From: Setoptus koraiensis
Lineage: Eukaryota > Animalia > Arthropoda
DNA: 64,000 nucleotides
Reading direction: 5' to 3'
Assembly: GCA_048013815.1 (NCBI GenBank)
Contig: CM106586.1
Coordinates: 744,001-808,000, forward strand
A model generated the notes under the pieces. That model had not been told where the DNA came from, did not search any database, and saw only the letters and a program-made list of their open reading frames with translations. Below, piece after piece: positions 3,231 through 43,574 of this stretch. Within the stretch, counting starts at the first letter, position 1; each line of letters starts with the position of its first letter. Both the position numbers and the translations under genes were made by a program.

Positions 3231-3493
3231 ATGACTGCATTAAAAGGAACCTTGGGTACGCTATAACCGAGAATTCGCCGACAAGCAATTAGACGGACAA
3301 CTCTACTATAACCCTGTCAAGGGATTTCACCCTTTGATCGCTAATAGAGGAATCCAATGCAACTAAACTATGTACAGCGTGATCAATACGCCCCTCATTA
3401 CTATAATGCTCGAAGAACACAATTGTCATGCATTAAATACATACGTAATTATGTCACAATGAGATTCCATTCGACAGCATGGTTGGTATGATC

Positions 3494-5980: not shown

Positions 5981-6797
5981 GGTTGTTGTAGCGATTAGGT
6001 CCCCACCCAGATCCTGATGAAACTTCCGGTATAGGTTCATCTTGACCCAAATAAGACGGGAAAATTACTCCGGAAGCCAGGAAACTTCACGTTCTGGTTT
6101 GACATAAAGTTGAAGCTAGAGATCTGAAACTCACCAGACCGACGTTTCAGAGAACGCTGAACAGAATGGCATACTTTTCAGCTCTGTGAGACTTCCGGTT
6201 CTCAAGATATAGGCTTATCTATAGGTTTGGAAGACCGGAAGTTGACGAATTTCAGCTTCGCTGCACTCGGGTATGAACCTGCGATAGGTCTGAGAATTCG
6301 GCCTCGTGATTTGGAGGCCGTCACATCTCCGTCGTCGCTCCCGCGACGACTGCGTGCGACGGGAACCCTTCGGGTAGGGTTGATGAGCGCTTCGGGTATC
6401 GGGCTGCGCCCTCTACCCTCCGCTCACATGACTGCAATCCAGACACAGATGTTTGGAATGGCAGAAGAATACGATAATGCATGGTGCTGCGCATACGTGG
6501 CACAGAATGAGTCCGCTGAACGCAACCGCACAGACCCGGCCACACCCTCGGTTCAGCTTTAACCTCTTTATCCACCGAACCGGAAGTCATAGAAAATTAA
6601 TTTTGATGCCATTATGCTCCGCTAGGTGTCTCCAATACAATTCTGAAATTTGGGAGCTCTATCTCGATATTTTAGTATCTCCGGAACCGGAAGTTTCCTG
6701 GCATCCGGAATACAAAATTCATAGTATGGGGCCCCTACAGGGCTCTTGTGCGAAGTTTCATCGAAATCCGAGTGGGGACCAAATCGCTACAACACCC
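5981..6797. mobile_element. GG-ended MITE, complete, inserted in the 3' end of copia env A
   Basis: TIR GTAGCGATT(A/T)GGTCCCCAC; TSD GTTGCTTG/GTTGTTTG (1 mismatch). Confidence 0.88.
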
Positions 6798-7967
6798 GTT
6801 GTTTGCACTATTTCAATCTCAGCAGGCGTTTCATATTGAAAATTATCAAAGTCAACTTCGATTGTCACCTGTCTTCTCAAACCCCCACTGTGTCTGACAT
6901 ATTCATAATAACATTTTACGCTGAGCGAAACGCAACTACCGACTGTCCAAATTATAATGATCCAAACTGCTCTGAAACTGTAGTATGGACCACTGAAATC
7001 TCCCTCCATACGAGCTGTAAACACAAAGTTTATGTTTTGTGTCACAATATCAACTGTAATGTCCAAAATTGTGGTGCCTTTTGTTTCTATTTTAGTTAAA
7101 TCAGGATAGGTAAGCAGTTCAGCTAGCTCAGGTATTGCCATTTTCCCCCATTTACACTCCATTACTATTATACGTAAGATTACTTCTGTAGCTAAAGTTT
7201 TTAGATCTATTAGATGAAATGCATGTAAGATCGGATCTGCATCATCGAGTACAGACTTGTGTATAAACTGTTCATCTGCTATGACGTTGCTTATGGAGAT
7301 TAGATCGGACTTTATCCCTTCCTTTATTCCTTCTTTCATATAGTTAGCGGCGTCATCATCGATACTAGCACCAAGAGTATCTTTCAATTGTTCGAAACGA
7401 TTGCTATTATCCAATTGGAATTCTGTTTTGAACAGATTAGTAATTGAGATACCAGTTATGTTTGGTATTGGGTTGAAGGTTTCTCTCTTCGCCTTTACTG
7501 TTGGTAGGCATAATTTAAGCTTTCTCATTACTGGATGTAGCCTGTTTTCGAAGAATCCATCACATAAGCATCGTGTTTGAGCTTTTATAGACGTATCATT
7601 ACATGATTTTAAGTTTGCCTTTGAAAATTGATGACAGGGATTATCTATGTCGAGAAGAAGGTGAAAGTTTATCCTTTTACAGTCAATTAATCCTACAAGG
7701 CACACAACGAGTGTCATAGCGATCATAGCATAGCTGCTATTCAGGCGATCTCCCACCGGCTCTGAAACTTTCATCATATTCTTGAATTTATGGTGCTTGT
7801 CACGTGACAATGGTTTTGTTAAGGCATCCGCGATTTGATCCTCTGATTTGATGTAAGAGGTTTGTATTTCTTTTCGAAACTGCAGGTCACGAACAAACAT
7901 GTACGTAATGTCTATGTGTTTTGTCTTGCTGCGTATTTGTGGATTCAGGGCGATCTCTATCGCACCT
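6798..7967 (-). CDS. Copia RNase H C-terminus fused in frame to envelope-like glycoprotein (env A, Met at 7726; last codons and stop at 5966-5972 beyond the MITE)
   Basis: (TKHIDITY)MFVRD..IKSEDQIADALTKPL = copia RH end; then hydrophobic MIAMTLVVCLVGLIDC, NPC, CDGFFE, KAKR, TM AVWIIIIWTVGSCVSLSV. Confidence 0.8.
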
Positions 7968-16560: not shown

Positions 16561-16627
16561 TGGTTAACAGCCAAAATAGCAGAAGCCAGCTCACACGCGA
16601 CCACCACGACAAAAAAAAAACAACCAG

Positions 16628-19292: not shown

Positions 19293-19881
19293 CAAGGAAA
19301 CCCGTATCCCTCCAGTTCATCGATGCTATCGACATCGAAACGCTTGATTCACCGACAAAAATTCATCTTTATTCAGTTCAACCTGCTACGATTCACCGAC
19401 ACTATCGACATCGACACGCGATTAATCGAATTCCACGACACCGAAACGATCATTCATCGACGCTATCGACGTCGAAATGCTCGATTCGCCGACAAAAATT
19501 TAAAGCCATTCAGTTCGCTACCCGGTCCATTGCGGGCCCCGCCCTCGGGACTCCCAGCCCTCGGGAAGAATCATTTTTAGTTTGGTGGCCGTCAGTCGTC
19601 CCGCCTACGGCCGCAGGCCGTAGGCGTGGACGACTGGAGGCCGAACCCCACCTCCCGCCGGGCCCAAAGCTGCATGGCAGGCATGCCCTGAGGCAGCAGC
19701 CGAAGTAGGCCGTCGTCTTTTTTAGAGTACAGGAGGCTATTTGAGGCAATGAGATAAAGATTGAGCAATGTTTATTTATTTCTGGTTTGAATATGACTGC
19801 ATGTGCATGTCATTATAGTTTTTCTACAACTTGTTTGCACCGATTTTTCTATAATAATGAGAATATTTGCTGCTCATCCAC

Positions 19882-21387
19882 TTACAAATCTATCAAAGAT
19901 TTGATTTGCTGGCCTATAGCGGTTAGAAATTCCTCTGTCGAACGTTGTGCTCTACTTGACATTATTTCTAATATCTGTTTCTCTTTTGCATTGTATTTTT
20001 TGCTGATTGCGCAATCCTCGCCTCGGTTAACACGGTCCATCAGTCCTTGTTGGTGATGAGCCTCGCTTCTTAAATGTGTGATGAGTTTGAATACGCCCGG
20101 ATGAGCGATACCAATAACCTGTTTTATTCGACGATGCCAGGCCTCGACAGAATTTTGTGTGCGCGGTAGGCCTTCGAATACCAGATCTTTTATGGACCAA
20201 AAATCCGGTAAGAATCGGGTAAGTCCTTGGCTTTGTGAGCTTCGTGAAGGACTTTCAATGTAGTTGTCTCTGAAATAAACCAAGAATTCTGATACTCTGG
20301 CATCATCTGACATGCCACTGGCAATGTTTTCGAAGGCTTCTTCGATTTCAAATGGTTCTAGAAAGGCAAGCGATATTATTTTGCGAACATCACTTACAAA
20401 CTTTTCATCCTCACCATACAGTCTTTTCAATCCTCTCGCTACAATCGCGCGGTATATGATCTGTCCAAAGTGGAACAGACAGCCTCTTTGCTTTGCTACC
20501 GGAAATTCGTCTTTACACGCCCGGATAGCAGCCCTTTCGAAATCCGAAAGTATAAATCTCGGCTCGAAAACTAGCTGCTCTTTTATACAGTAGCTCTTGA
20601 GATCTTGAATTAGTTTTTTGTAGAGTGCGACGGTTTTTGAGCTCATGAGAGCAAAAACTAGTGGGAAGGCTCTTCGTTTCGACCCGGCTCCAACCATCCC
20701 AAATATGCTGTAGAGCTGATAAAACATTTGCGGAACTACATAAAATGTACCATCCATTATAAGCATCTCAGATGAGGCCAGGTACGTGAGTGACTGTTTT
20801 GTACCGAATGAAATAACCCTGTGCGCTCCTACAACTGAATCCGCGATGAGGAATGGTCCTCCGTCGATTGCTGTCGCAATATCTTCTGGTATGACCAATT
20901 CATCTATATTCGATGGCTCCTTTATTGTGTCGGTCTGCTTCCTTACTCTTCTGATGATCTGGGCCTCGGCTGATGTGCTTGGCATTGTTGCCAACACCTC
21001 TCTCGAGGCTTCAGAATGCACTCGCGAAATTATCTGGCACGGTTTTGCGCTTCCTGTAGCCATCTCCTTGATTTTATGAATCAAGTCTCCACGCGCCTTC
21101 TTGCTTACCGATGGCGGATGGTCGTGTTCGCCGGATTCGGAATGGTAGTGGTGCTCTTGATTTACTAGAATTGTCTGCAGACGGCCTGTGCAACGTCTGG
21201 TGAAATACTCGGTGCATTTCCAGTAAAACTTATCCTCTCTGTTGCGGTCTTTGTAATAGGAGAACCCCTCAACAATCAAAAGTAACTTACCTTTTTCGGT
21301 ATATGTTGTTGAAACTGTTTTTGTTTCAGTGTCGGTTGTCTCGGTGTCCATGGTGTCATCTTGGTTCGAATCGAATGTTTTATCCAT
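19882..21387 (-). CDS. MULE (Mutator-like) transposase with FLYWCH zinc finger, 501 aa, intact
   Basis: EGFSY..FYWKC..C..HDH; IMDGTF, ILSDFE, CLFHF, TQNSVEAWH catalytic motifs. Confidence 0.92.
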   Translation of the reverse strand: MDKTFDSNQDDTMDTETTDTETKTVSTTYTEKGKLLLIVEGFSYYKDRNREDKFYWKCTEYFTRRCTGRLQTILVNQEHHYHSESGEHDHPPSVSKKARGDLIHKIKEMATGSAKPCQIISRVHSEASREVLATMPSTSAEAQIIRRVRKQTDTIKEPSNIDELVIPEDIATAIDGGPFLIADSVVGAHRVISFGTKQSLTYLASSEMLIMDGTFYVVPQMFYQLYSIFGMVGAGSKRRAFPLVFALMSSKTVALYKKLIQDLKSYCIKEQLVFEPRFILSDFERAAIRACKDEFPVAKQRGCLFHFGQIIYRAIVARGLKRLYGEDEKFVSDVRKIISLAFLEPFEIEEAFENIASGMSDDARVSEFLVYFRDNYIESPSRSSQSQGLTRFLPDFWSIKDLVFEGLPRTQNSVEAWHRRIKQVIGIAHPGVFKLITHLRSEAHHQQGLMDRVNRGEDCAISKKYNAKEKQILEIMSSRAQRSTEEFLTAIGQQIKSLIDL

Positions 21388-21422
21388 TGAAGTCTTGATT
21401 ATATTGATCGGATATTGGACAC

Positions 21423-21725
21423 GAAGCTAATTGATGAACAATACTTGATGAAGTGTAACGAGTTGAATAATACTTTTGTTTGTTTGAAGAAGTTGACACG
21501 AAGCGAATTGATGAATGATATTTGATGAAGTGTAACGAGTTGAATAATACTTTTGTTTGTTTGAAGAAGTTGTCACGAAGCGAATTGATGAATAATATTT
21601 GATGGAGTGTAACGAGTTGAATAATACTTTTGTTTGTTTGAAGAAGTTGTCACGAAGCGAATTGATGAATGATATTTGATGAAGTGTAACGAGTTGAATA
21701 ATACTCTTGTTTCTTTGAAGAAGTT
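21423..21725. repeat. Tandem repeat, 77-bp unit, ~4 copies
   Basis: AAGCGAATTG recurs at 21501, 21578, 21655. Confidence 0.85.
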
Positions 21726-22262: not shown

Positions 22263-22742
22263 CTATTCATCAGAATTAGCATCGTCTGCCGCATTTTTCG
22301 AAGCAATTGCCACTACTGAATCGAACAAAAACTTCAGCAGGAAAACCTGGCGTTTCTTTCGCGATCTTCCTCCAAATTCTCTTTCAAATTCAGCCTCTCT
22401 TTCAATTTGTTGCCATTGCTCTTCAAAAGGATTGTCATGAGGATTGTTGACATTAGAGTTCAAGGCAGGATTATTATTGGTTGGCGCAGGATGAGTATGG
22501 ATTGGGACAGGATGAGTATGGATTGGGACAGGATGAGTATGGATTGTGACAGGACGGCTATATGGTACTGTATTGGTTGGACGACGCGCCGTTTCCTTGA
22601 AGTTATACTGCCTGTTATACTTATTAGGTAGCGTCGCTGGCCGGCGTCTTGGTGGTGGATTCAAGCCAACAGCCACAAATGACGAAATAAATATAACAGC
22701 AATCATAATGAGTGCGAACTTCTGCATCTTGCTTGGTGACAT
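22263..22742 (-). CDS. Secreted prepro-peptide-like protein, 159 aa (MULE cargo)
   Basis: Signal-like KFALIMIAVIFISSFVAVG, PIHTH repeats, acidic spacer, RSRKKR furin-type site, hydrophobic QVFLLKFLFDSVVAIAS; minus-strand TATAAATA at ~22855 with TCATTT downstream. Confidence 0.7.
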   Translation of the reverse strand: MSPSKMQKFALIMIAVIFISSFVAVGLNPPPRRRPATLPNKYNRQYNFKETARRPTNTVPYSRPVTIHTHPVPIHTHPVPIHTHPAPTNNNPALNSNVNNPHDNPFEEQWQQIEREAEFEREFGGRSRKKRQVFLLKFLFDSVVAIASKNAADDANSDE

Positions 22743-23859
22743 TTTGTTGGTTGCAATCTTCTATAGTTATTACTGACAATTTTGTTGGTTGCTATCTATT
22801 GTTATCAATGCTAACTATCTAATGAAATGATGCGATGGAGTGGTGCGCGCACCAGTATTTATACCCATTGATTTCAACCAACTCGACTCGACTTTACGAC
22901 CTTTCAGGGTGACCTTTCTCGGTGACCTTTCTTGTAGTTGTTGGACCTGCCCGGGCCCACGATAAGTGCGGGCTCAAGATAAAGATGGGCCCTTTCGACA
23001 CGCGCCTAAATCGACAGGAATTCCTCGCGGTTCGGCATGAGAATAATAAACGTGTTGTCTCCTTTGGGTCGCGCCAAGAAAATGTCGTTCTACACGTCTG
23101 CAAAGAGACGCTACACGCACGCCGCCAAATTCAATAAAGATGGGCTCTATCGACACGCGCCTAAATCGACAGGAATTCCTAATCGCGGTTCGGCATGAGA
23201 ATAATAAACGTGTTGTCTCTTTTGGGTCGCGCCAGGAAAATGTCGTTCTACATGTCTGCGAAGAGACGCTTCACGCACGCCGCCAAATTCAACAATCCTC
23301 ATGACAATCCTTTTCCGAAATCGATCATTTCATCGACAGAGGGGTTCAATTCATCGAACCATCCATTCGAATTTGATCGATTCAATTTGTCGATGAAACC
23401 TATGTCGGTGAATTGAATGAAACTAATTTGAATCGATGGTTCGATGAATTGAACCCCTCTGTCGATGAAATGATCAATTTCGAGCAATTCTTATTTCGAT
23501 AAACAAAGTGTCGATGAATGCATCGTGTCGGTGAATCGTAGGGCACCCAAGGAAACCTATTCAGCTGATAGACTCAGATTGAGTCCTCGTTAGCCTAGAT
23601 CGACTCAGCTCGAGGAGCTGAGCAAAATGGGTCTATACCTAGCCCCGTTTTATCCCGACTTTTTGCAATTTTCCGATAAAAATTTCAAAGTTCTATACCC
23701 TATTTGATATGACTAGAGATGCTCCAGAGAGCGTCAGAAAGGCAATTTTAGAGGAGTTTTAATTCAAAGTTTTCAAAGTTCAGAGTTTTATTTGTTGCTA
23801 CAATTTGTCACGCGTGACTGATACAAACTTAAGCCTATGCTCGTATCTCTCCATCGCAA

Positions 23860-25949
23860 CGGCTGCTAGAGGCACAACTTGAGTTAACTTGAATGTGAAG
23901 CGGTGTAGGATGTTACACATGCTTAATGAAATCATGCTGTATTTCATGGAAACACACCCTTTCCAAAAACTGTGGGAAAGAACTTTGCCACAGTGAGAGC
24001 ATAAAATGAATCTGTGATTTCCACACCCTGGAACCTCACATGTTGTCGCTTTGTCAGAACCGAATCTGAATTGCACGGCCTCAACTGTGTCGGGTTGTCC
24101 ACCAATAGACATTTCATCGTCACTGTAACCTGGATCTGTGTTATGCCAGGCATGAATCAGAAGATCCTGGTAACCTGGCGCTGACAACTGGTTGAAAACC
24201 AAAGATTGCATGTTTATGATGCCTTCTCTACTTATCACTTTGTCTTTGATTCCAATGATTGCTGCCTCCATGGATATGCGTTTTACAATTTTTTTTGTAT
24301 TGGCGGTTAAAGCCAACATCTAACGGTTGAAGTTCATCGGTAGTTCTTCTCGGAATGTCAAGAATTTCTATGCCTTTGCATTTGAGAGCGGCACGGTTGC
24401 GAGGATTGAGATGTCCCGACCAGTGATCCAGAAGCAGCATAGTATCTGGTTCTGGTATCTCCACGATTTTTGGAGTGCTTCCTCGCGAAGACCCCGCTAC
24501 CAGCCCGTGAGCTGGCATCGAGGGTGTTTTGAACATCAAAGTCGACCAATCTATAGAACGATCATTCCAATTAGGTTCATTTGCCATGTATGGGCGTTCA
24601 CCCAACACTGGAATGAGGACATCAGACATCCACCGATATAATAGCTCGCTTTCCAGTTTACCAGATTTGCTCGCAATAACATGTACATTCTTATACTTTC
24701 TCTCCAGACCAGCAACTGTCTCTGCAACTCTCGGCCCAAACTTTCCACTCGCCTCCTGCATAACTATAAGTAATTTTCCAATGAGATACCCATTTCGAGA
24801 AATCACAGGCTGTGTAGTGTATGAATGGGAGACTTTGTTCTTGGCTTGAACTGCCTCGGCCGTGTCTCGCTCACCGGCGAAAGAAAGTGTTCGTTTACCG
24901 GCAAACTCATAAGGAAATCCCACCTGATCTGTATTCAAGATGGCATATGAAAGGAATCTGTCGGCGTTCGAAGCGTATGTCTCGCGAAAATGGGCAATAT
25001 TTTCTTGATCAAGAGCTTTCATGGCTTGTTCTGATCTACCTTCAACCTTGGTGATAGCACGGGAGACAATTCCATTCCTACGCTTGAAATTGTGTAACCA
25101 AAACGACGTGGCTCGGAAGTAAACATTTAAACCAAGCATGTCAGCCTTGGTCCATGCCCACTCCTTGAGATGAGCCTCATGAATCTGCTGGTGTCGTTCG
25201 CGAGCTGACACGAATTCAGCCAAGACGTAGGCATCAATTTGTAGGTATTTCTCTTTTAAACTTCCCCCGTTCGACACGATTTCTCTAAATCTTTGTGTGT
25301 GATAGTATTGGAACCAACGGTATTTGGCCTTAATTGTTCTGTAAGATTTCCCCTCGTCAACCATCTTTAGAATGTTTTTCATAGTTGCAAAGGATTTCAT
25401 CACAGTGCTACCAATGTCAGCGTTTATATTAAATTCAAAATCATCATCTGTTAGCGAACGAGAGACCCCTTCGGAGGCTTTGCCTTCACTCTCACTCTCT
25501 GAAGAAGAAGAAGGTGCCTTCCCGGACATCCATTCATAGAGTTGCTTCGCTTTCACCATCTCGTCAGATTCCTTCAATCTCTTTGAATGCATCTTGTAGA
25601 CAGAGGGGCTCTTTGTAGCCAACTGGAGGCCGATATCCAGAATTTTGGTCATTTGTTCTTTGGATAATTTTTCTTTGAACAGTAGAAAGCCTTTGGGCTG
25701 TGGATTTTGTTCGGATGTCTGTTGAGAATTCTGTTCGTTGCTTGGTTGAATAAATTCTTCTCCCTCAAAAACCAACTCCTCATCAATGATTGATCCTGTT
25801 TCAGAATCGTCAGGAGCGAGGTCGTCGGAATCGTTTGATGTTTCAATGCCAGATGCAGCCTCTGTATCAGAATCTGTTTGTGATAGAGGCCTGCATAGTA
25901 TTGCACCAGAAAGCAAACAAATCAGTGTAAGGCAAACGAGTATTTTCAT
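23860..25949 (-). CDS. Signal-peptide-bearing pogo-type transposase (CENP-B HTH + DDE_1, DD35D, C-terminal Cys-rich domain); frameshift in T8 run at 24289-24296
   Basis: MKILVCLTLICLLSGAILC-RP; WLHNFKRRNGI; NTDQVG, LLLDHWSGH, QPLDVG with 35 residues between D2 and D3; CEVPGC..CSHC. Confidence 0.88.
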
Positions 25950-26489
25950 CCTTAAAATACGCTAGGTAACAAGAGAAGGATAGTTGAAGTAATATTTGCG
26001 ATGATACCAGAAAGAATGTGATTTTATATCTAACATAAATTATCTGAATGTATGACAGAATAAGACAAGACGATGACTCATAGAAAGTCATTATGTCACA
26101 CCACCGTAGAGCAAGCTCATCTTGACAAGGTCGTCTGCATACTAATTTGTATTGAAAAATACATTATTGATGGTCGCACTGCGTTGTAGCACAGTTGATA
26201 GATAATCTATGTGCAAATGTCCTTGAATCTTTAAACTTATCAGCTCTATACGTTCATACAAATCACTCTAGACTCTCTTAAACAGTTGAGATTGCCTTTC
26301 TGACGCTCTCTGGAGCATCTCTAGTCATATCAAATAGGGTATAGAACTTTGAAATTTTCATCGGAAAATTGCAAAAAGTTGGGATAAAACGGGGCTAGGT
26401 ATAGACCCATTTTGCTCAGCTCCTCGAGCTGAGTCGATCTAGGCTAACGAGGACTCAATCTGAGTCTATCAGCTGGATAGGTTTCCTCG

Positions 26490-28077
26490 TGAGTTATCAC
26501 CCAGAGCCATCAAGACAAGATTCAGGACCACCAACTGTGTCGAAATTCTTTGGGCTCATGGCTTATATAGACCCAACGTCGTTCAAAGAGGCGATGGCAG
26601 GCCCTGACAGTGCAGAATGGCAGACGGCGGTGGACAAAGAAATAATGGCTCACCAAGAGAACAAAACTTGGACGGTAATAAAAACGCCAGTCGGTGCAAA
26701 CCTTATAACCTCTCGCTGGGTGTTCAAAAGAAAAACATTAGCTGATGGGTCATTGGATCGCTATAAAGCGCGCCTGGTGGCCCGCGGTTACGATCAAAAT
26801 TATGGTCAAGAATACAACGAAACCTTTGCGCCGGTCGCGCGACACGAAACCATCAGACTTATGTTTGCACTGGCAACGAATCATTCGTTGAAATATCTAC
26901 AGTTCGATGTGGAAACCGCCTTCCTCCATGGTGAACTGGAGGAGACGGTGTTCATGGCCCCTCCAGCTGGAATGGACTGCCCAGGAGGGCACGCTCTCAA
27001 ACTCAATAAAAGTCTGTATGGGCTAAAACAGGCCCCGAGAGTCTGGAAAGAGAGTCTTGACAGCATCCTCGCCAAAATTGGCTTAAGAGCAACTACGTCC
27101 GATCCTTGCCTCTATCTCGGCAAAATATCGAATGAGGACGTCATGCTCATCATTTATGTCGATGATGGGCTGGCGTTCTCCACCAGTGGGCATGCGCTCG
27201 ATCAGCTACTAGGACAACTGTCACAATCACTCAAAATGAGGAAAGTGTGTGATAATACCTTCGTAGGATATGAATTCAAAGTTGGTGACTCATGCACCGT
27301 CCTCCAGGAGACCTACATCCGTCGAATGTTGAGGGCATACCAGATGGAGGAATGCTTGGAAGCGTCATCACCGATGGTCGACACGGTGGACCTTCAGAGT
27401 AAATCTGATAAGGACGAACCCAGCGAAGCTCCGTATCGCCAACTGATTGGATCTCTCCTATACTGCGCTTGCTGTACACGACCAGACATCTTATATTCGG
27501 TGTGCTTCCTCGCCAAGTATACGAACCCAATGGCAAAACATTGGACCGCCGCAAAGAGGATTCTGAGGTACCTCAAGGGCACAAAAGAACTAGGCCTGAA
27601 GTACAACAAGGTCGGGCCCTTTGAAGTTGAATTTTCATCCGACGCCGATTGGGCGAACAATCCGTGAGAAAATCCGTGAGTGGAATCATGGCCACCGCCA
27701 GTGGTGGACCAGTTATGTTCACCAGCAAACAGCAAAACTTGATTGCCTTGTCTACCACGGAGGCAGAATGTATAGCTGCTTCGTCGGCCGCGAGAGAGAT
27801 TTTATGGGTCAGAAGATTTCTCGAGGAAATAAAGGAAATCGTAAAAACAAGGCAAACAATTAAACTTTTGATTGACAATCAGCCAACAATCAAACTTATT
27901 GCTAACCCAGAGTTTAGAACGAGAACAAAACATCTGGACATCCGACTGGCGCACCTCCAAGACAATGTTAAGAACAAAATGTTCAACATTGAACATGTGG
28001 CCAGTGACAATCAAAAAGCAGACTTACTTACAAAGTCGCTGACGCCAAGAAAGCACGCCTCAAAAGGATCGGCATGA
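26490..28077 (+). pseudogene. Ty1/copia reverse transcriptase and RNase H (continuation of 16628-19292)
   Basis: YKARLVARG, FDVETAFLHG, LYGLKQAP, YVDD, SDADWA; RKSVSG, RTKHLDIR, ADLLTK. Confidence 0.95.
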
Positions 28078-28080
28078 ACA

Positions 28081-28278
28081 TGTTAGGATACGGCAAGTCT
28101 AGTGGTTACTTTTTCTATCTCTCTTTATTCAACTTCGTTCTCTTACAACTAAAACTACAATGCCTCTTCATGAGGCTGCTACATTTATATATATATGTTC
28201 TTGCGCAACTGAGTCTAGTCTCAGTTGCTGGGTCATTTACTGAGTCGGGTGGCTCAACTATCTGAGCCAACCGTAACA
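28081..28278 (-). mobile_element. 3' LTR (198 bp) of the enveloped gypsy element
   Basis: TGTTACGG...TCCTAACA; preceded on minus strand by PPT AAACAGGGGGG (28279-28289); TATATAAA and AATAAA inside. Confidence 0.85.
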
Positions 28279-28306
28279 CCCCCCTGTTTAAGGGCGAAAC
28301 GCGTAC

Positions 28307-28623
28307 TCAACGCGCTGAGGTCTCGAACAGGTCCTGAGGATCTCTTCGGAGACGTTGTAAGCCGATAGTTTCCTCTCTTGATTTCTGGAGTTTACGTAAT
28401 TTTATGCAAACCCAGATGAGGATAACGCCGGTTATTGATAGCAGTAGTGAGGCGGTGATGGTTCCCAGTGTGCTGGATCCGTACCTGGCTAGATACGGCA
28501 TGTTGATTGTTTTCGTCGCTCCTGGATCTGCTTCTTCGGTTAATTTGGACAGTTCGGCGATTCTGTCTAACATGAGCGTCGCCGAATCGTGATTGGGTTC
28601 AGTGGACAGCATAGAGGTCCAAT
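28307..28623 (-). CDS. Gypsy env C-terminus: TM anchor and cytoplasmic tail
   Basis: TLGTITASLLLSITGVILIWVCI then KLRKLQK; rejoins 29475 in frame (HQIVKNWTSML) after HINE removal. Confidence 0.85.
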
Positions 28624-29474
28624 TTTTAGCGCTTAATTTTAATTAAGTAGCTATTGGGATGGTTCTGGGCTCTACGTTTATTCACGTGGGTAGAACAAAT
28701 CAGTGCTTTTTTCAACTAGGAAAAAATAGCACGGTGAAAGCTGTACTGTGAGAAATAAACTAGATAAATTTAGAACACTCAAAGCTTACAATGTTGATTA
28801 GTTAAATTTAGCACATACAATGCTATGCGCGTTCACTTACTAGACGCGATTAGCACGCTCAAAGCTGAGATGCTAACTAGATGAATTTAGCACAGCAGAA
28901 GGCTAGCTGTATACAATTCGGATTTAGTGCACTGGAAGCTAGAGGTGTTGGAACTAGAAGATTGTATAACAGTAGAAACTACTCAGAATGTCTACTGCTT
29001 CTCAGCACTGTTGATTCTAATGTAGATAAAGCTAGACGAGAGTAACACGCTCAATGCTGCGATGCTAACTAGATGAATTCACATAGTGCGCCATCGCGTC
29101 CTGGTGTATGTATTGAAATTATTTATTGTGGCGAAACTAACCGATAAAAGTGCACCAATTTTTGCATGCAGGCAACAGACATGTACATCCAACTATGGTG
29201 AAAATTTGAGAAACCTGGATCTAGTTTGTGATACTCTTTAGATGGTATGAAACGACCAAACTACCAATTTGGATAGCATACTGCACACGAGCATCTCAGC
29301 TATACCACTATGTGGTATAGCTGAGATTTCTTGTACTCTTGGCTACCAAGTATGCATCAATTCATCGATTGCGAGCGCTAATGGGTTGTCATAAACTCCT
29401 CCTAATCTATCAACGATAATCGTCTACATGAAAAATTAAGCGCTCGAAATACTGATTTGATCAGTATTACTTGT
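28624..29474 (+). mobile_element. Helentron-like HINE, complete, inserted at TT in gypsy env
   Basis: TTTTAGCGCTTAATTTT ... AAAATTAAGCGCT + hairpin + ACTTGT; empty site CCAATTCTTC restores the frame. Confidence 0.92.
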
Positions 29475-31350
29475 TCTTCACAATTTGGTGTTTGGTCGCT
29501 GCTAACGTTCCGATATTTGACCAAATGTGTGATCTGGTTCGCCATGGTTGGTCTATGGGCAAGCTAAATACGAAAGGAGGGCAACGCGCGCTGACGTTAG
29601 CCAGCTCAATACGTCCTTTCAAACAGTATATGTAGGCGCGTTCTCCATCAACTTTCACGTCCTCTCTCTCCTCTATGTGATTTAGGTTGCGGTGGCATAC
29701 GATATTCTTCCATGATGAATTTCGTTCTGGCAGGAAATCCTTTTCATCACAAGTCAGAGCTAGTTCTTTTCCCACCGGGGTCGATAGGATCGGGCGCGTG
29801 CAATTGGCTGTGCTGTTGTATAGGACAAATTTATGGCCTGTGTACTCTTGCAGACACGGCTTGCCTGTCAAGTTATTATAGACTCTGAAGGCGTCGGACT
29901 GCAGCAGGTAGGAATTCTTGTCTACGTTCCTGGTCGTAAAGCGCAATTTGATAATATGCGGAGCCAGTTTAGTACAAGAATGCGTCGATGAGGCTAACAT
30001 GTTCACGTTAATTAACTCCGATATATTGGTGAATTTTCCCAATTCTGGAGATATAAGGTCATTGTTCCAAGCGTTTATGGCCCGATCGAGTTGTAAGCCT
30101 GCGTCTCGGATGGCATTCTGAACGTACAATGTTGTCCAAACTTGGTATGGCCAGTTGCGTGCCATTTCGTGGATGTCTTGGGTGTTTGTATTCACCTGTC
30201 TGGCTAAGGTTCGGTACAACTCGGTTTGCGTTTTAGTTACCATGTACGCCTTATCAGCGTGTTTGAGAAGCTTATTTAATTCGGCCGTCAGGATGGTTAC
30301 CTGTTTTTGAGTTTCGGCGTCGTTGTTGGGATGGAAATAGCCATGGACGGATTCTACGATGGACGAAACCACGTATTCGAATGCAGCGCCTGCTCCAAAT
30401 TCCAAAATTCCAATCTGTCGTTTTACTCTGGTACTTTCGTGTTCAGTTTGGTCGGTGCACCAATTGTCCAGCCGATAAAGAATTTCCTTCTCGTAAAATT
30501 CTTGGCACATTTTGTATAAATTGTTATTCAGCGCTTGATTTGGCGAAGACACTAACTCTTTGCACGGCGATTTCACAGCGATGGTGAGATCCCACGATTT
30601 TGTCCCTTTGACGATTTGAGTATCGGTTTTACGCCACACAACTGGTGGTTCATGTCTCCATATCATCTCGCCGAACACGACGTTGATGATACACGTTATG
30701 GCGATGCTTTTGGTGATAAGGTTCATCGTTGACCTAGTGGCTGCTGTTTGTGCAGGTTGGTAGTTGCTCGTACTTGGTTGATTGATGCTTGTACTCGGTT
30801 GATTGATGCTTGTACTTGGTTGATCGATGTTCGTGTTTGGAGAGTTATTATTCGACTGAATTGAATGGTCGTCGGTGTCCGTCTCGGAATCGTCGTTTCT
30901 TGGAGTGAAAGCCCTCAAGACTGAGACATGTCGCGAAATTTTCTTGTGGTTTATACAGTGTTCCAGCTCATATATATTATTCGCGCTGACTTTGGTGACA
31001 ATATATGGGCCGTCACTTTTGTTTGCTAGTTTAGCGCCGCGCGCAAGCTTTTTCAAGGCCCAAACTTTGTCGCCTGTGTTAAATGTCAGGTCTCTTCGTG
31101 AGGCGTCGTATCTTTTTTTTGACGCCGCTTGGGCTTGAGCGTTTTGGTTCATGGCGTGCGCCATGTTTTCTTCTAGTGTCAATTTCATCAGCTTAGTGTA
31201 TAGTTGGTGGATTGACATTTTTTCCAGAGTAACATTATCTTGATAAAGGAATGGTTTGCGACCATACATTAATTCGTATGGTGTCATATTGGTTGACGAA
31301 TGTTGAGTAATGTTGATGGCAAATGTGATCATTGGCAGTGCTTCGTCCAA
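29475..31350 (-). CDS. Gypsy integrase C-terminus (GPY/F) fused in frame to env (signal Met at 30726)
   Basis: TPYELMYGR, GDKVW, DGPYIV; linker; MNLITKSIAITCIINVVFG, WRKTD, SPC, CQEFYE, RVKR + QIGILEFGAGAAF. Confidence 0.88.
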
Positions 31351-34103
31351 TTTGCCATACTGTAATCGTCGTTGCTATTTAATACCATTGCCAACTTGTC
31401 GCCAATCGTTTCGTTGGCGCGTTCGACTAACGCGTTGCCTTGGGAGTGAAAGGGCGTCGATCGGATGTGGTGTATCTTGTGCAGCTTACACAGCTCCTTG
31501 ACCACTTCCGCTCCGAATGTCTGCGCGTTGTCGGTTAGTATATTCTCCGGTATCCCGTACCGGCATATGATATTCTCGTTTAAAAATTTAGCGAATTTGA
31601 TAGACGAGATTTCTGAAGTGGCAGCGGTTTCGATGTAACGCGAAAACGCGTCGATAGCCACAAATATGTGGCAATTCCCTCTAACCGAATCGGGCAGTTT
31701 GCCAATACAGTCGATAGCTACGATTTCGAAGATTCTACTGCATTGGAAGGAAGACATGAGGCCCGCCTGATTTTGTCGTGGGATTTTTCTGCGTTGACAC
31801 GTTTCGCAACTGTCGACATAGTTGCGGACGTCGCTTTTAATCGAAGGCCACCAATACTCTTCTTGCAGTTTTGCAAGTGTGGCTTTCCGGCCGCCGTGAC
31901 ACGCTAGGAAGTCGTCGTGTGCACGACGGAGGAATTGTTTTCTTAATTGGGCTGGTATAAATAGCTTATTGTCGTCATTGTAAATCACTCCGCTTATCGT
32001 TTTGACTCCGTCACCCGATGCGGCGCGAGCCAACATCCCCTGCGCCTCGACTGAGGAGTCATAATTCGCTATCCATTCTTCGTTGTTCACGAGGATGATC
32101 ATACATATGAATATGACTGCTCTGTCCGGAACATAGTCGTGCTCATCAACTGGGTTCCGTGACAGGCAGTCAACATCCGCATGTAGATATCCCCTTACAT
32201 ACTCGATTGTTATATTGTATTCGTTGAGCAGTGCGCTCCATCGCGCTAATTGAGGCGATACAGGCCTTTTTTTGCCCAGCACGCATAAGGCACAGTGGTC
32301 CACGAGGACAGTCACTGGCCGACCCAATATGTAGGCACGATATTTGTCTAGTGCCCATATTAAGGCTGCTGCCTCTAATTTGGTAATCGAGTAATTTTTT
32401 TCGCTTTCATTCAGTCGGCGTGATGCGCAAGCCACAATCATCCAACCTCTTTCGTGTTTTTGTTGGAGGATTGCGCCGAATCCTTCGAGGCTTGCATCAG
32501 TTTTTAGGCGTGTTTCCAGCTTAGGGTCGAAGCACGCCACGCACAAGTCTGAGCTGAGAGCGTCTTTGAGTAGATTGAACGCGTCTTCTTGCTCTCTTTG
32601 CCACACAAAGGGAGCGTTTTTTAATGTCAAATTTACGAGCGGTGCAGACATCTCTGCAAATGCTGGTAGAAAGCGTCTGTAATAAGATGCTTTTCCGAGA
32701 AAGCATCGTATTTGTGTTATGTTCTGTGGTCGCGGGAAGGCTTTAATTGCCTTCACTTTTTCAAAGTCGGGCTGGATGCCGTTCTTGGAGATATGATGTC
32801 CGAGAAAAGTAATGGCCGTTGCGCCCAGAATACATTTGGCCGGTTGTAACTTTAAATTCGATGCTCGGATGCGTTTGAACACTGTCTTTAATGACGCGAT
32901 GTGGTCGCTCCACGTTGGTGAAGCGACGCAGACGTCGTCAATAAAGACCATCAATGCTTCGTTTTTTAGGCCACTAAAAATGGCGTCCATTAAGCGTTGG
33001 AAGGAGGCGCCAGAGTTGGATAAACCAAAGGGCATGGCTTTAAATTGCCAATGCCCGTCATGCGTGCGAAATGCGGTTATTTCGCGCGATGATGGGCTCA
33101 TTGGAATCTGCCAGTACCCGGACTTAAAGTCCAATAAAGAGAAATATACTTTATTGGCCATAAAGTCCAGGCAGTCATCAATTCTTGGCAGCGGATATGC
33201 GTTTTTTTTTGTTTTGGCGTTGACTGCCCTGTAATCAACGCAAAATCTTGTGTCGCCATTTCTTTTTTTCACCAGCACGTAGGCGCTGGCCCACGGCGAC
33301 GTTGATTCTTCAATTATATCCTGTTTGATCATCTCAGCTATTTGCTGAGATACGGCTTTTTTTCCACTGGTGCATGGCGACGGAGTGGTTCGGCGATTGG
33401 TACGGCGTCCGGTAGCAATTCTATTTTGTGTTCGCACAAATTGGTGCTGCCAAGTTCGCCTTTGAAGGCAAATATATCAGAAAAATTATTCATTATATTT
33501 GAGATGTCATTCAGTTGTTCTGGCTTTAAATCGTCGCCAACTTGGATAGTTGCGCCTTCTTCGTTTACCGGAAGTATGGCGTTGCAATGTATAGGTTGTA
33601 CGTTGTCATCGTGCTCGTTAAGTGCTTCATATCGAGCGATCGTAGCTCCTTTGGCTATTGTTATCGGTACTTGGGTTGCATTCATTACTAAAATGTCGCA
33701 ACGTGATTTAATCGGTCTGTATATACCGTTTGCGATGTTGAGTCCTGCGTTATTGTTTGAGGGTTTTGTTAGAATCTCGTTTGTGGTATTAACGATGACG
33801 CTAACGAATTTTTGTGACCTTGTAGGAATTTTTACTGTTTGGGCGGATATCACGGGCCCTTTTGGTTTTGATGTCGAACTCTCGGAATCGATCAGGTTGA
33901 TTGAGGTTTGTGTTATTTCCTCATCTTCGTCGATGTAGCGCAAGGTTTCTTTGGTGTCGCATTCAATGCAAATTCGCAATCGGCTGAGCGTTTCTTTGCC
34001 GATTATTACGTCAACTGGTAGGTCCCGTATGACGTGGTATTCGATGTACAAAATTTTGGATGTGTTATTCAGACGGATAGTTGTCTTTTGGATTGTTACG
34101 CCC
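31329..34103 (-). pseudogene. Ty3/gypsy protease - RT - RNase H - integrase (two 1-nt frameshifts in homopolymers; 5' end in gap)
   Basis: DVIIG, RFCVDYR, MPFGL, VFIDD, KTDAS, H..H..CETC, IDCIG/TDNA/LVER. Confidence 0.95.
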
Positions 34104-34603: not shown

Positions 34604-35622
34604 CTCTGTACGAGCACCTGGAACTAGTATCGGAAATTCGAATTTTCAATTTCGAATTTCCAAGTTCGAAATGTGACCATCGAACTCTGACCACCGAACT
34701 CCGACGGAGCAGATGGAACTATCATCAGAGAATCGAATTTTCAATTTCGAATTTCGAAGTTCGAAATGTGGCCATCGAACTCTGACCACCGAACTCCGAC
34801 GGAGCAGATGGAACTATCATCAGAGAATCGAATTTTCAATTTCGAATTTCGAAGTTCGAAATGTGACCATCGAACTCTGACCATAGAACTAAGAACACTC
34901 AACCACTAACTTCGAATTGTGACCATCGAACTCTGTACGAGCACCTGGAACTAGTATCGGAAATTCGAATTTTCAATTTCGAATTTCCAAGTTCGAAATG
35001 TGACCATCGAACTCTGACCACCGAACTCCGACGGAGCAGATGAAACTATCACTAGAAAATCAAATTTTCAATTTCGAATTTCGAAGTTCGAAATGTGACC
35101 ATCGAACACTGACCACCGAACTCCGACGGAGCAGATGGAACTATCATCAGAGAATCGAATTTTCAATTTTGAATTTCGAAGTTCGAAATGTTACCACCGA
35201 ACTCTGACCATAGAACTAAGAACACTCAACCACTAACTTTGAACGAGCAGCTAAAACTCTTATTAGAAATTCGAATTTTCAATTTTGAAGTTCAAATTGT
35301 GGCCACCGAGCTCCTCACAAATTCGACCTAGTCAAATCTCCATAGGATTGCATACGAAATATTTTCGAGTAAAGCGATAATAGACCAAGTCAAATCTACA
35401 TCGGAATACATGTGTAATATCTAGCAGGATTCTCACAAATTTGACTAAGTCAAACCTCCATAGGATTACATAGTCACGTGAATGAACGTAGAGCCCAGAA
35501 CCATCCCAATAGCTGCTTAATTAAAATTAAGCGCTAAAAGCACTCATTTGTTCTACCCACGTGAATAAACGTAGAGCCCAGAACCATCCTAATAGCTGCT
35601 TAATTAAAATTAAGCGCTAAAA
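34604..35622 (-). mobile_element. HINE 5' part with TCGAA satellite and duplicated 5' end
   Basis: rc TTAGCGCTTAATTTT at ~35525 and ~35608 (83-bp tandem); satellite 34604-35300. Confidence 0.75.
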
Positions 35623-35632
35623 ATTACACGTC

Positions 35633-36062
35633 ATGGGGTTTGTGATGGAAAGTGTAATCGAAAGCAAAGGTCTCGAGAATGTTGTATATCAAGAAGTTCC
35701 AGAAGAAGACTACACAAACATGAAGAAAAAGATGTTACAAGCCCGTGAGCTTATAACTACGGCACTTGACCAACAAGTTATCGACCAGCTCTCAAACTGC
35801 AAGACAGCAAGTAGCATCTGGCCCAGACTAGAAAGTATATATCAACGAAGAAGTGAATGCAATCTCGAATCCCTTATTAATCAATTTTGGCCTATTAAAA
35901 TGGAAGATAACGAATCCATGGCCCAGTATATAGGAAAAGTTGAAACCTTAGCAGGAAAAATAAGAAACGCAGGCGAAGAATTAAGCGACAGATCTGTGAA
36001 AGCAAAGATAAAGGTGGTTTAGCGAAGCCTTATCAAGAATTTAGCAGGGCCTGGGATGCCAC
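35633..36062 (+). pseudogene. Copia gag fragment
   Basis: ASSIWPRLESIY, MAQYIGKVE, (frameshift) LAKPYQEFSRAWD. Confidence 0.8.
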
Positions 36063-36670
36063 TGTTGGTGTTGGAAATTTTTCTGCAGTCCCTCGGTTGA
36101 TAAAGGGTTATTCCTTGTAGAGATTGAAGTTTCCTGCACCCCTCACCTAAGCCTGCATCATTAATCACTTCGCCTTTGTTGAGTGGTCGTATACAGCTAG
36201 AACTTTTGTTATAAACCACATAATCAGGCCCGGTGTACACCACATCACACATTAAACCCTCTCTAATTTCTCTATAATTGAATGTTTCTGCTCTCATAAT
36301 AATCGCTGAGTTGCTCAAAATGGGCATCATAACTCGTAGGTCGATCTCTTCATCTCTTATCTTTACAGCGATCAGATTCGTATGTTTGAGCATGTTAGGA
36401 CTAACTATCTGCGACATATTAAAGAGCTCCAAGAGTTCTAGTGGTATTGGGTTGCCCACTTTCAGGAGGTTGTTCAATACCAGTAGGGATGTTTTGTAAT
36501 CATGCATTTGGATGGCAACTTGTATGAGAGCATCATTGAGTGCTGGCTGATTTGCCAATATATCAGCAAGTAATTGATTATCTCTCTCCAATGCATCGAT
36601 CTTCTTGGACACTTTATCTGCTGATATAATAAATCTTTCTTGGAGAATTGATATTCGTTCTTCCAGTCGT
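36062..36670 (-). pseudogene. Copia env B ectodomain continuation (truncated)
   Basis: RLEERISILQERF..VGNPIPLELLELFN..AETFNY; continues 38435-39016 after HINE removal, with TAA at the junction. Confidence 0.7.
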
Positions 36671-38434
36671 TTTTAGCGCTTAATTTTAATTAAGCTGCTT
36701 TTGGGGTGGTGATTATGACTACGTTTATTCACGTGACTATGTAATCCTATGGAGGTTTGACTTAGTCAAATTTGTGAGAATCCTGCTAGACATTACACAT
36801 GTATTCCGATGTAGATTCGACTTGGTCTATTATCCCTTCACTCGAAAATATTTCGTATGCAATTCTATGGAGATTTGACTAGGTCACATTTGTGCGCAGT
36901 TCGGTGGTGACAAATCGAACTTCAAAATTGAAAATTCGAATTTCTAACTTGTTGTCCCCTCAGTCGATGGACTGAGGCGGGGAGATCGTAGGTCGGGAAG
37001 GTGCTGTTGATTTACCACTCCCCAGTTCTCCCTCAATCTCCCAAATCTTCAGGAAAACTAAAGAAAAAGAAATACTTCAGCTGACGACAAAAAAAGTGTG
37101 ACAAATATTGTGACCGATCTACAGCGTTTAGTGTTGTGACCGATCGATAGTGTGACCGATCTCTAGCCTTCAGTGTTGTGACCGATCGATAGTGTGACCG
37201 ATCGATAGTGTGACATTTCTCCTTAAAAGTTTAAAGATCTACGTTCGTAACCTCCCTACGATCTAATAAGAGTTTTAGCTGCTCGTTCAAAGTTGGTGGT
37301 TGAGTGTTCTTAGTTCTATGGTCAGAGTTCGGTGGTAACATTTCGAACTTCGAAATTCGAAATTGAAAATTCGGATTTCTGATGAGAGTTACAGCTGTTC
37401 GTTCGATGTTCGATGGTCAGTGTTCGGTGGTAACATTTCGAACTTCGAAATTGAAAATTCGAATTTCTGATAAGAGTTACAGCTGTTCGTTCGATGTTCG
37501 ATGGTCAGTGTTCGGTGGTGACAATTCGAACTTCGAAATTGAAAATTCGGATTTCTGATGAGAGTTTCATCTGCTCGGTCGGAGTTCGATGGTCAGTGTT
37601 CGGTGGTCACATTTCGAACTTCGAAATTCGAAGATTGAAAATTCGAATTTCTGATACTAGTTCCAGGTGCTTGTACATAGTTCGATGGTCAGTGTTCGAT
37701 GGTCAGAGTTCCGTGGTCAGAGTTCGATGGTCACAATTCTAACTCCGAAATTCGAAATTCGAAAATTGAAAACTTGAATTCCCAATGATAGTTTCATCTG
37801 CTCGTTCGATGTTCGATGGTCAGAGTTCCGTGGTCAGAGTTCCGTGGTCAGAGTTCGATGGTCACAATTCGAAGTTCGAAGTTCGAAATTCGAAATTGAA
37901 AATTCGAATTTCCGATGACAGTTCCATCTGCTCGTTCGATGTTCGATGGTCACATTTCAAACTTCGGTGGTAACAATTCGAAGTTCGAAGTTCGAAAATT
38001 GAAAATTCGAATTTCTGATGATAGTTTCAGCTGCATTGTCGGAGTTCGATGGTCAGAGTTCCGTGGTCAGAGTTCGATGGTAACAATTCGAAATTCGATG
38101 GTCACATTTCGATCTTCGAAATTCGAAATCGATGCTCTATAACAAAGTATGCGCCATTGACTAATTGGTGTGTCCAACTAACTTACTCATTGTGGCGAAA
38201 CTGACCATTAGAATCTTACTAAATTCCGTACGCAAGCAATCAACATGTTTATCATGCTGCAATAGCAATTTGGAGAACTAGGATGTATTCTGTCATCTTT
38301 CCGGCTACTCTGATCTGACAGGCTTAGATGTGTATCTCCGACATGTTGTCTCATGCTCGCATCCATATTCCAACGATACTCGTCTATCCAAAAAATTAAG
38401 CGCTCGAGATACTGATTGAATCAGTATCACTTGT
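36671..38434 (+). mobile_element. Helentron-like HINE, complete, carrying TCGAA satellite
   Basis: 5' TTTTAGCGCTTAATTTT; 3' AAAATTAAGCGCTCGAGATACTGATTGAATCAGTATCACTTGT. Confidence 0.88.
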
Positions 38435-39016
38435 TACATGTCTACACGTGCATTATTCTCATTGGCTATTTTTTGAGATGTTGAATTCATTGAATACCTG
38501 GCTGCGTATAGTGCCGACATGGCCAAAATAGCAGCAACGCCACCATCTCGAGCAAATCTTGTGCCGCTCGTAGCTAAGGCATGAATTGTCTCAATAATAT
38601 CTCTTTCAAATCTTTTTGAACAAGTGGTCACAAGATTATCATTAACATATGGTATATCTGTAATATTACCAAACAGATATTGGCAGGGATCTAGAAACAC
38701 AAACTTGACATTACGATCTTGTTGGCCATCGATTAGAACAACATCTGTTCTTTTCCATATTATTGGGTCTTCATGATGGAAAATGGCTGCACATAGTTCG
38801 ACAACAAATGCAAATGCGATGAGGACCGAAGCTCTAGTCAAATTCAGTAACTTCATGTTTTGATTGAATTTGGATGGCGGCAGTGCTTTTGTGAGCAGGT
38901 CAGCTTTTTGAAGCTGTGTAGGAATATATTCGAGTTCGAATAAATTGTTCTTATAATGTTGTAGAATTATTTTATATTTTAGATCAATATGTTTGGTGCG
39001 TTGGTCGAATTGATCG
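38435..39016 (-). CDS. Copia RNase H C-terminus fused in frame to env B N-terminus
   Basis: rc frame reads DQRTKHIDLKY..IPTQLQKADLLTKALPPSKFNQNMKLLNLTRASVLIAFAFVVELCAAIFHHEDPIIWKRTD..DPC..CSKRFE..RFAR-DGGVAAILAM with no stop. Confidence 0.85.
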
Positions 39017-39017
39017 T

Positions 39018-39962
39018 TTTTAGCGCTTAATTTTAATTAAGCGCTAATAATGTAGTGATGATGGATCCAAAATGGAGGAGGCAATCCACACACAAGCCTA
39101 CAATTTTAGTCACGCCCCCTCCTTAGCACACAGTAAGCTTCAGCTTGATTGAGACTTAAGTCGCTCCACCTCCTCAGCACACAGTGAGCTTCAGCTTGAT
39201 TGAGACTTAAGTCGCTCCACCTCCTCAGCACACAGTGAGCTTCAGCTTGATTGAGACTTAAGTCGCTCCACCTCCTCAGCACACAGTAAGCTACAGTCTC
39301 TCGATTACTATGTTAAAGTATCTAAACATTACACATGTTAAGTCTATGGAGATTTGAGTCTCTCAATTCCTGTGTTGAAGTATCTAAGCCATTTCCGGGC
39401 ACGAAGGGTAATTGAGTACGTAGCATATTTGAAACTGTTCTCACCAGGATAAATTCTTGAAACTTTCTAGAGACAGCTAGCACTGTCTCACAGAGCACTT
39501 AATTTTAACTAGGTAAATCATGTAAATGTCGTGATATTTGAACATGTTCACACCTATCCGTTTTGATGATACTCTGTGTGTGTGTTGTGCATGATGCTCG
39601 CAACATTCTATGCTAGCATGATCAGCCATCAATAGGTCGTTTTCGAGACTGAAAGAAATTTCGGATGACGGATGTCATGTGAATATCGTGATATCTGAAC
39701 ATGTTCCCACCTATCCGTTTTGATGATACTCAGTCAACTCATAATCAATTTTCTGTTTCTAGTATTGGCGCTATAGGCCATTATTGAGAACATGTGCCTA
39801 TACAGTATGAGTGATTTTCGATACTATTCTCACCAGGATAAATTCTTGGAACTTTTTAGACACAGCTAGCACTTATCACTACTTAATAAACTGTCCAAAC
39901 CTCTAAGATCGTTCACTGAAAAAATTAAGCGCTCTTATACTGGTGTAATCAGTATAACTTGT
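39018..39962 (+). mobile_element. HINE (second subfamily, palindromic 5' end, 51-bp tandem repeats)
   Basis: TTAGCGCTTAATTTTAATTAAGCGCTAA start; 3' subTIR + TTATACTG..CAGTATAA hairpin + CTTGT. Confidence 0.8.
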
Positions 39963-40060
39963 TTCAAGTTGAAAAAAGCACTGATTTGTTCTACCCACGT
40001 GAATAAACGTATCTGCCAGAACCATCCCAATAGCTGCTTGATTAAAATTAAGCGCTAAAA

Positions 40061-40178
40061 ACAGTCTAATGGTCTCGTGACGTTCAACACTCGCACAAGT
40101 CTCGAAGTAATCAACACCAAAGCGCTGGCTAAAACCCCTAGCCACTGAGCGCGCTTTGTCTCTGTCTAATTCCCCCAC
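40061..40178 (-). pseudogene. Copia RT fragment
   Basis: LDRDKARSVARGFSQRFGVDYFET..RHETIRLF. Confidence 0.75.
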
Positions 40179-43490: not shown

Positions 43491-43574
43491 GAAAGATCCA
43501 CGTGTAGTTGCAAATATAGTTATAGTACATCCACAAATAACCGACGCCTCACCAGAGGCCGCTACGAACAAGTG

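Follow-up and report, generated by a model that had tools for sequence, protein, structure and literature searches.

An env gene fused in frame to integrase in a gypsy element of Setoptus koraiensis, and its predicted F-type family on gypsy and copia elements

Described env-bearing elements and the Setoptus locus

The capture of an envelope is the step from retrotransposon to retrovirus, and in animals it has been described for gypsy and BEL/Pao elements. Here, we analyzed a gypsy element in a 64,000-nt stretch of Setoptus koraiensis DNA (contig CM106586.1, positions 744,001–808,000; hereafter the window, whose positions serve as coordinates). The element lies on the minus strand, with reverse transcriptase (RT)-RNase H-integrase, env, a polypurine tract (PPT), and a 3′ long terminal repeat (LTR) in view. 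Its env is fused in frame to integrase, as in its relatives, is homologous to envs of copia elements, and belongs to a family in which gypsy and copia members are mixed on the env trees. This is a broken gypsy copy whose env, a predicted F-type class I fusion protein, is probably freed from the polyprotein at an internal signal, and we consider it likely that this one env family moved between gypsy and copia several times by recombination.

Several described systems resemble this locus in part. Plant Sireviruses such as SIRE-1 are copia elements with an extra open reading frame (ORF) for a membrane protein behind pol, as in the copia elements described below; here, however, RNase H and this ORF form a fusion, and the ORF has a homologue in a gypsy env predicted to fold like a viral F protein. 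The envelope nature of the Sirevirus ORF is called unclear in the available portion of PMC5408684.

According to the latest survey (PMC13524379), gypsy elements with an F-type env occur widely in animals, with oribatid mites and a scorpion among the carriers. Like the window element, they carry a gypsy pol followed by an F-like env with a signal, a furin site, a fusion peptide, and a transmembrane (TM) segment; env is said to follow pol with infrequent recombination and mostly to stay with its pol. The survey covers gypsy only and describes gag, pol, and env as three ORFs, with the order ENV-GAG-POL in its oribatid elements, whereas the env studied here continues the frame of integrase and its family also occurs on copia. 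The terms ‘fused’, ‘polyprotein’, ‘in frame’, and ‘splic’ have no occurrences in its main text.

In the portions of the following sources available to us, Drosophila roo (BEL/Pao; PMC3087523) has gag, pol, and env in one ORF, as here, and its env is termed F-like in PMC13524379, but it belongs to a different superfamily from the env carriers studied here, and PMC3087523 states that the env proteins of non-gypsy LTR elements are believed to lack function. The bdelloid rotifer element TelKA (PMC5408684) bears a paramyxovirus-F-like env on a gypsy-like element and, where the window element has a dUTPase-like spacer, a dUTPase between protease and RT, and it illustrates that accessory ORFs are common to distant retroelement types. 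Unlike the fused env here, the TelKA env is a separate ORF3 matching pfam00523, and what TelKA shares with Penelope-like elements is a GDSL esterase and a DEDDy exonuclease ORF; the sharing involves neither env nor copia.

Already known are gypsy elements with an F-type env (PMC13524379), a single-ORF gag-pol-env in roo (PMC3087523), and accessory-ORF sharing in rotifers (PMC5408684). We found no published report of an F-type env in an animal copia element or of gypsy-copia env exchange, in a search with most subscription papers and Repbase annotations outside it, and the word ‘envelope’ does not occur in the available text of the metazoan copia survey PMC11889832. The notable novelty is an F-type env family on both animal copia and gypsy elements that appears to have crossed the border repeatedly.

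Env behind integrase and its predicted fold

A minus-strand ORF of 635 aa (31374–29467) runs from the end of integrase through a linker into env with zero stops. The upstream part (30727..31374) comprises the C-terminal part of integrase, with 46% identity to residues 1360–1510 of relative P0002, an SH3-like module with a weak Pfam match (SH3_Tf2-1, E 0.037), and an S/T/N-rich linker. The main env piece (29474..30726) follows with a Met at 30726 and a hydrophobic signal-like stretch, then WRKTD (30636), SPC (30570), CQEFYE (30507), RVKR (30429), a hydrophobic, fusion-peptide-like segment (~30414–30358), and ISPEL (30054); two invariant Cys, a long helix, and beta-rich domains belong to this piece. 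All motifs named in the original prediction were thus found in this ORF, and its claim of an env fused to integrase held, as no stop intervenes in the window sequence and the fusion recurs in relatives. Contigs of three runs of one sample (X1, X2, and X4), perhaps the source of the window, showed no listed length difference from the window between the end of integrase and the start of env, and five of the six listed differences in the 635-codon frame were synonymous, which is a hint only. In a run search, the listed runs included none of RNA, a result without bearing on expression.

Env is split by an 848-nt repeat with inverted termini and a 3′ hairpin (28626..29473), which we take to be a HINE and which has many partial copies in the window; the X1, X2, and X4 contigs contain a version of env without it. 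Beyond the repeat, the C-terminal env piece (28307..28622, minus strand) encodes a membrane anchor (~28459–28403; Kyte–Doolittle hydropathy 2.43) and a short tail. The two pieces match consecutive parts of the family profile, positions 7–418 and 444–517 (E 0.0045 for the latter) of 561. They are followed by the PPT (28279..28289) and a 198-bp LTR (28081..28278), which begins and ends with TG...CA, contains a TATA-like motif and AATAAA, and is the sole copy in the window. Removing one HINE therefore leaves env continuing into the TM segment, PPT, and LTR, as had been predicted. HINE-like repeats are extremely common across the window (e.g., 28626–29473, 36670–38435, and 39017–40060), with one shared terminal motif and differing internal tandem arrays, and, summed over contigs, they reach a depth hundreds of times greater than unique sequence.

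The in-frame integrase-env fusion is the normal build of this gypsy family. A pol-first search restricted to long proteins (lengths 1209–3450) returned 473 relatives at E ≤ 1e-50, 120 of which were listed, and the same env lies in the same ORF as pol in 34 of these 120. Full-length fused relatives have 2000–2370 residues in the order Gag-protease-RT-RNase H-integrase-Env; one relative (P0331) comes from the mite Halotydeus destructor. On the RT tree, the window element stands beside P0002 within a 35-row clade (support 98), and env is visible in 29 of the 35 rows. The element is not an Errantivirus of the Drosophila gypsy type, for which we take a separate third env ORF to be the criterion, since its env is in frame with integrase. 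It does fit the wide operational sense of Errantivirus in PMC13524379, namely a gypsy pol with an env-like fusogen gene.

Two Cys and a hydrophobic stretch just upstream are kept in all 49 aligned envs, and an R-x-x-R-type site occurs in 35 of them, with a dibasic pair in most others. Relatives P0284, P0305, P0323, P0388, and P0012 carry inserts of up to several hundred residues before the fusion peptide, some with several extra KR-type sites. The window env was modeled with AlphaFold2 from a 33-row alignment (32 relatives), giving a predicted local distance difference test score (pLDDT) of 82 and a predicted template modeling score of 0.64; the model from the single sequence (pLDDT 34) was unusable. 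The listed PDB structural matches consisted entirely of paramyxovirus and pneumovirus F proteins, with 7e-7 as the best E. Respiratory syncytial virus F gave Z 10.7 with a root-mean-square deviation of 10.7 Å over 324 aligned residues, where Z scores come from re-ranking Foldseek matches only. Baculovirus F and lispivirus G were also among the matches in a viral structure library, and the Atlas gave leads, and leads only, to F-type proteins for the window env and one copia env.

The F-type class I features, namely the signal, basic cleavage site, fusion peptide, long helix, and C-terminal anchor, are all present, and from its modeled fold the protein is predicted to belong to the F-type class I fusion proteins. 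It shares the predicted fold and motif order with paramyxovirus and pneumovirus F, baculovirus F, and lispivirus G, but its identity to these viral proteins is just 7–13%, with no PDB or Pfam sequence match: a PDB sequence search with the window env returned one chance match (E 0.98), and Pfam Gypsy and Baculo_F matched neither the window env nor 20 relatives; the Atlas shows a resemblance at the level of features only.

The rest of the element places it in Ty3/gypsy (Metaviridae), with the pol order protease-RT-RNase H-integrase, an RVT_1-type RT, and a TG...CA LTR with a PPT. RT, RNase H, and the integrase zinc finger and core occupy 31329..33476 on the minus strand in gypsy order (Pfam RVT_1 5e-31, RT_RNaseH 8e-30, Integrase_H2C2 2e-23, and rve 6e-10), with a frameshift at both ends. 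Upstream, 33341..34102 (minus strand) encodes the protease region's C-terminal portion together with a dUTPase-like spacer, with 36% identity to P0002 residues 454–693 and a weak Pfam dUTPase match below the cut-off (E 0.018); it is cut by an N gap at 34104, in or beyond which gag, the protease active site, the primer-binding site (PBS), and the 5′ LTR fall. With these parts in or beyond the gap and two pol frameshifts (near 33360 and, in the integrase core, near 31350), this copy is broken, and the earlier description of it as near-complete was too generous. The frameshift near 33360, upstream of RT, sits in an A-run like a slippery site and is present in X1 and X2 contigs. A programmed frameshift there is possible and not favored, because the listed relatives read the region in one frame.

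The same env family on copia elements

Two copia fragments on the minus strand of the window carry envs in frame with the end of RNase H. In copia B, the RNase H end and the N-terminal piece of env B share one frame (38437..39015; copia RNase H profile E 2e-17, env profile E 8e-12), and this junction is covered by one contig in X1 and one in X4. A second env B piece without the C-terminal anchor lies behind nested repeats (36022..36669; E 7.5e-14) and is collinear with residues 1242–1443 of the copia relative P0146 (34%); no contig among those listed joins the two pieces. Upstream of B is a copia RT fragment (40050..40175, minus strand; 60% to P0146 residues 655–696). In copia A (6758..7966; copia RNase H profile E 1e-17), the RNase H end shares its frame with a short env that has a TM segment of its own. 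The RNase H preceding env A, env B, and the env of record P0269 is of copia type (E 1e-17, 2e-17, and 7e-54, respectively), and the gypsy profile gave no match to it.

The profile–profile check proposed for the claim of one env family in both superfamilies bore it out: hhalign of copia against gypsy env profiles (14 vs 31 envs) gave a probability of 100 and E 1e-54 over 393 columns. At the level of the individual copies, the gypsy env matched the env B pieces pairwise with E 5e-13 and 5e-10 (z 18 and 14; 500 shuffles each). The claimed kinship of the copia envs stood pairwise for env B, while env A, which was not significant pairwise against the gypsy env (E 0.28, z 0.5), joined the family via profiles only. 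It reached E 7e-8 in an env-profile search among 1565 window pieces and 28.6 bits against profiles from outside relatives only, where the best of 300 shuffles and the reversed sequence was 3.3. Env A is an open 402-codon frame with a signal, KAKR, and a TM segment, in which profile positions ~284–479, the C-terminal half of the ectodomain, are missing; this short F-like form is possibly a derived mini-env, or else the product of an internal deletion.

The third copia env, “C”, of the original prediction was not found. The ORF 22760–22263 has a signal and RKKR, yet its env-profile match was only E 4.8, and a further candidate piece (2939–2751) reached E 0.12; both were rejected. The former, at 22263–22760 on the minus strand, is a 165-codon ORF with a signal-like start, IHTHP repeats, RKKR, and a hydrophobic segment, with no env-profile or Pfam match.

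Env-bearing copia elements also occur outside the window. Env follows RNase H in 17 of 120 listed copia RT relatives, 15 of them at E ≤ 1.5e-18. L001 is a complete copia element with two near-identical LTRs, a 5-bp target duplication, a PBS, a PPT, and a single 1860-aa ORF that ends in env; it has an extra 226-codon ORF between env and the 3′ LTR (6964–7644, plus strand). The order integrase-RT-RNase H was seen in the env-bearing relatives L001/P0260, P0280, and P0405, whereas the carriers of env A and env B and the record P0269 are fragmentary.

Starting from env, a HMMER search returned 430 matches at E ≤ 0.001. Among the best 150 of these, the upstream sequence in the same ORF was copia in 37 and gypsy in 21, was unclassified in five (four being env with long inserts and one having a gypsy-type integrase tail), and was too short in 87. 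A word-indexed search with env alone returned none of 2519 candidates, a failure of sensitivity in light of the 430 HMMER matches. Neither the window env nor P0146 found a match in IMG/VR scans, which were sensitive to close relatives only, and a metagenome scan with env alignment A1 gave no confirmed match.

On the careful env tree of 48 rows (33 gypsy and 15 copia), the labels changed between gypsy and copia four times, two of the changes being forced by starred branches, and a single change was found in 0 of 200 bootstrap trees; two further runs had the same outcome. A single clade of 16 copia envs was rejected by the approximately unbiased (AU) test (p 8e-9; 49 rows, quick tree), and with it the suggestion of a single shared capture per superfamily. 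FastTree, a weaker method, gave nine changes on 103 env rows, six of them forced by starred branches, with a gypsy group within the copia envs and the reverse. These trees omit P0196, P0170, and env A as too short, and the later ones P0205; P0026 and P0036 lie outside the env alignment, and the 103-row tree leaves out new matches under 380 residues or without classifiable upstream sequence.

P0269 is the clearest candidate for gypsy-copia env exchange. Its env, behind a copia RNase H, is the second-best match to the window env and shares 39% identity with it. Identity to a further two gypsy envs is 36–37%, whereas no full-length copia env in the comparison exceeds 25%; to the window gypsy env, the remaining full-length copia envs reach at most 24%. 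By phylogeny, the P0269 env falls in a 99/98 clade with three gypsy envs (window, P0268, and P0002), and env B of the window groups with copia P0146, P0413, and P0405.

The proposed comparison of env and RT phylogenies gave a divided result: gypsy and copia labels are mixed on the env tree, whereas within gypsy the env tree partly follows the RT tree (13 of 29 splits in common; Mantel rho 0.43, 0 of 2000 permutations). Given this partial agreement, the copia envs look grafted onto a gypsy-tracking env tree. Env-bearing copia elements are spread over several RT subclades (eight changes, six forced, with truncated records counted as env-less).

Other sequences in the window are also of copia origin. 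A copia RT and RNase H on the plus strand (26405..28077; Pfam RVT_2 1.5e-53), into whose end the gypsy element is inserted in the opposite orientation, groups by RT with env-bearing P0146 (99), and its alignment to P0146 stops at 28062. At 28062–28081, the gypsy LTR ends a few codons past the copia RNase H, where env starts in the P0146 family. More copia gag and integrase fragments lie at 16468–19708, 35621–36022, and 43568–44836 (plus strand), the last 61% identical to P0146. The window also contains open frames for a FLYWCH-MULE transposase (514 aa) and pogo/Tc5-like DDE transposases at 19882–21426 (minus strand), 24228–25961 (minus strand), and 42035–42940 (plus strand).

Possible histories of exchange and their meaning

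Repeated swapping between the superfamilies is the history that appears to fit these sequences best. The original prediction placed the swap in one host. Exchange across the superfamily border stands, given the mixed trees and the AU result, whereas a swap between the window's own copies is rejected: the gypsy env and env B lie on opposite sides of a 100/99 branch, are only ~22% identical, and are not nearest relatives. Because of this last point, the exchange reads as old and lineage-wide rather than as an event in this host.

Several observations weigh against this history and against the predicted nature of the protein. The env trees have no outgroup and are thus unrooted, so that any direction of transfer is inferred; most envs are only 20–25% identical, several on long branches; the 103-row tree comes from FastTree alone and a 26-row tree was hand-picked; and P0269 is one record, with its RT outside view. 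In the env model, residues 78–116, around the cleavage site and fusion peptide, have pLDDT < 50, TM-scores to F proteins are low (~0.3), and Pfam env families matched neither the window env (E ≤ 0.1) nor 20 relatives (E ≤ 1). As to the fusion, six of the 35 rows of the env-bearing RT clade have no env in the protein, ending at or before the end of integrase, the pol-first search of long proteins favors fused forms, and, of the 87 env matches in which the upstream sequence is short, 33 begin at a Met close to the signal. Because of these last two points, stand-alone env ORFs may exist as well. Furthermore, 25 of 47 relatives have a Met no more than 15 residues from the hydrophobic core, against ~29% expected by chance, and separate initiation or a spliced or internal env mRNA may contribute. 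Between the final enzyme motif and the hydrophobic core there can be as few as 8–14 residues in gypsy and 18–24 in copia; such short spacers, and a nearby Met in only 25 of 47, fit the polyprotein reading.

The alternative that survives best, which we still regard as unlikely, is repeated independent capture, in which both lineages took F genes several times from one diverse, unsampled virus group without any swap between elements. The predicted fold is common to the glycoproteins of arthropod negative-strand viruses and baculovirus F, and in virus-free trees, mixing alone cannot tell capture from swap; the 87 matches with too little upstream sequence leave room for such sources. Yet 58 of the 63 matches with usable upstream sequence are gypsy or copia, the other five being the inserted envs and the gypsy-type tail described above, and IMG/VR, scanned within its reach of close relatives, holds no close relative. 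Additionally, the gypsy env tracks the gypsy RT, which suggests long residence in elements, and all 49 rows have the same internal-signal junction.

Considerably less probable is a single transfer, in which env made just one entry into copia (or into gypsy) and the apparent mixing reflects tree error at 20–25% identity. The long branches and the only two forced changes of the 48-row careful tree would allow it, but the AU test, the bootstrap trees, the 36–39% identity of the P0269 env to three gypsy envs against at most 25% to full-length copia envs, and the spread of env-bearing copia over several RT subclades largely refute it. We give almost no credence to an artefact, whereby nested insertions or misassembly placed env beside the wrong pol or the motifs are shared by chance: broken repeats lie densely nested in the window, which also has N gaps, and env A lacks pairwise significance, but the integrase-env and RNase H-env B junctions are each covered by single contigs, the same build occurs in dozens of uninterrupted polyproteins from other sources and on one complete LTR-bounded copia element, and the existence of these intact relatives refutes it.

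On the simplest view, the element would make a single Gag-Pol-Env polyprotein, in which the hydrophobic stretch that follows integrase in gypsy or RNase H in copia, the last enzyme in each case, would thread env into the endoplasmic reticulum. Signal peptidase would then cut env loose from integrase or RNase H, and a furin-type protease would cleave at RVKR, exposing the fusion peptide and priming fusion. The resulting trimer might let particles enter another cell, presumably much as in Drosophila gypsy. An env cassette with its own signal would need only an in-frame join behind the last pol domain and would thus be portable; template switching or DNA recombination between co-resident elements could graft it onto either superfamily.

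It is quite possible, although we would not go so far as to call it probable, that in one animal group, probably mites, gypsy and copia elements form a shared pool of infectious retrovirus-like elements that trade an F-type cassette both ways, with many copia lineages being true enveloped viruses and short env A-like forms persisting. A single F-type env family is present on gypsy and copia alike, although even the domain order of pol differs between the two, and this family seems to have passed between the superfamilies several times, which would make the gain of an envelope a repeatable, modular event. The dozens of intact natural elements may serve as systems for studying the production and dosage of Env in a single-ORF element and the possible infectivity of copia elements, and the presence of env on copia bears on the definition of animal Pseudoviridae.

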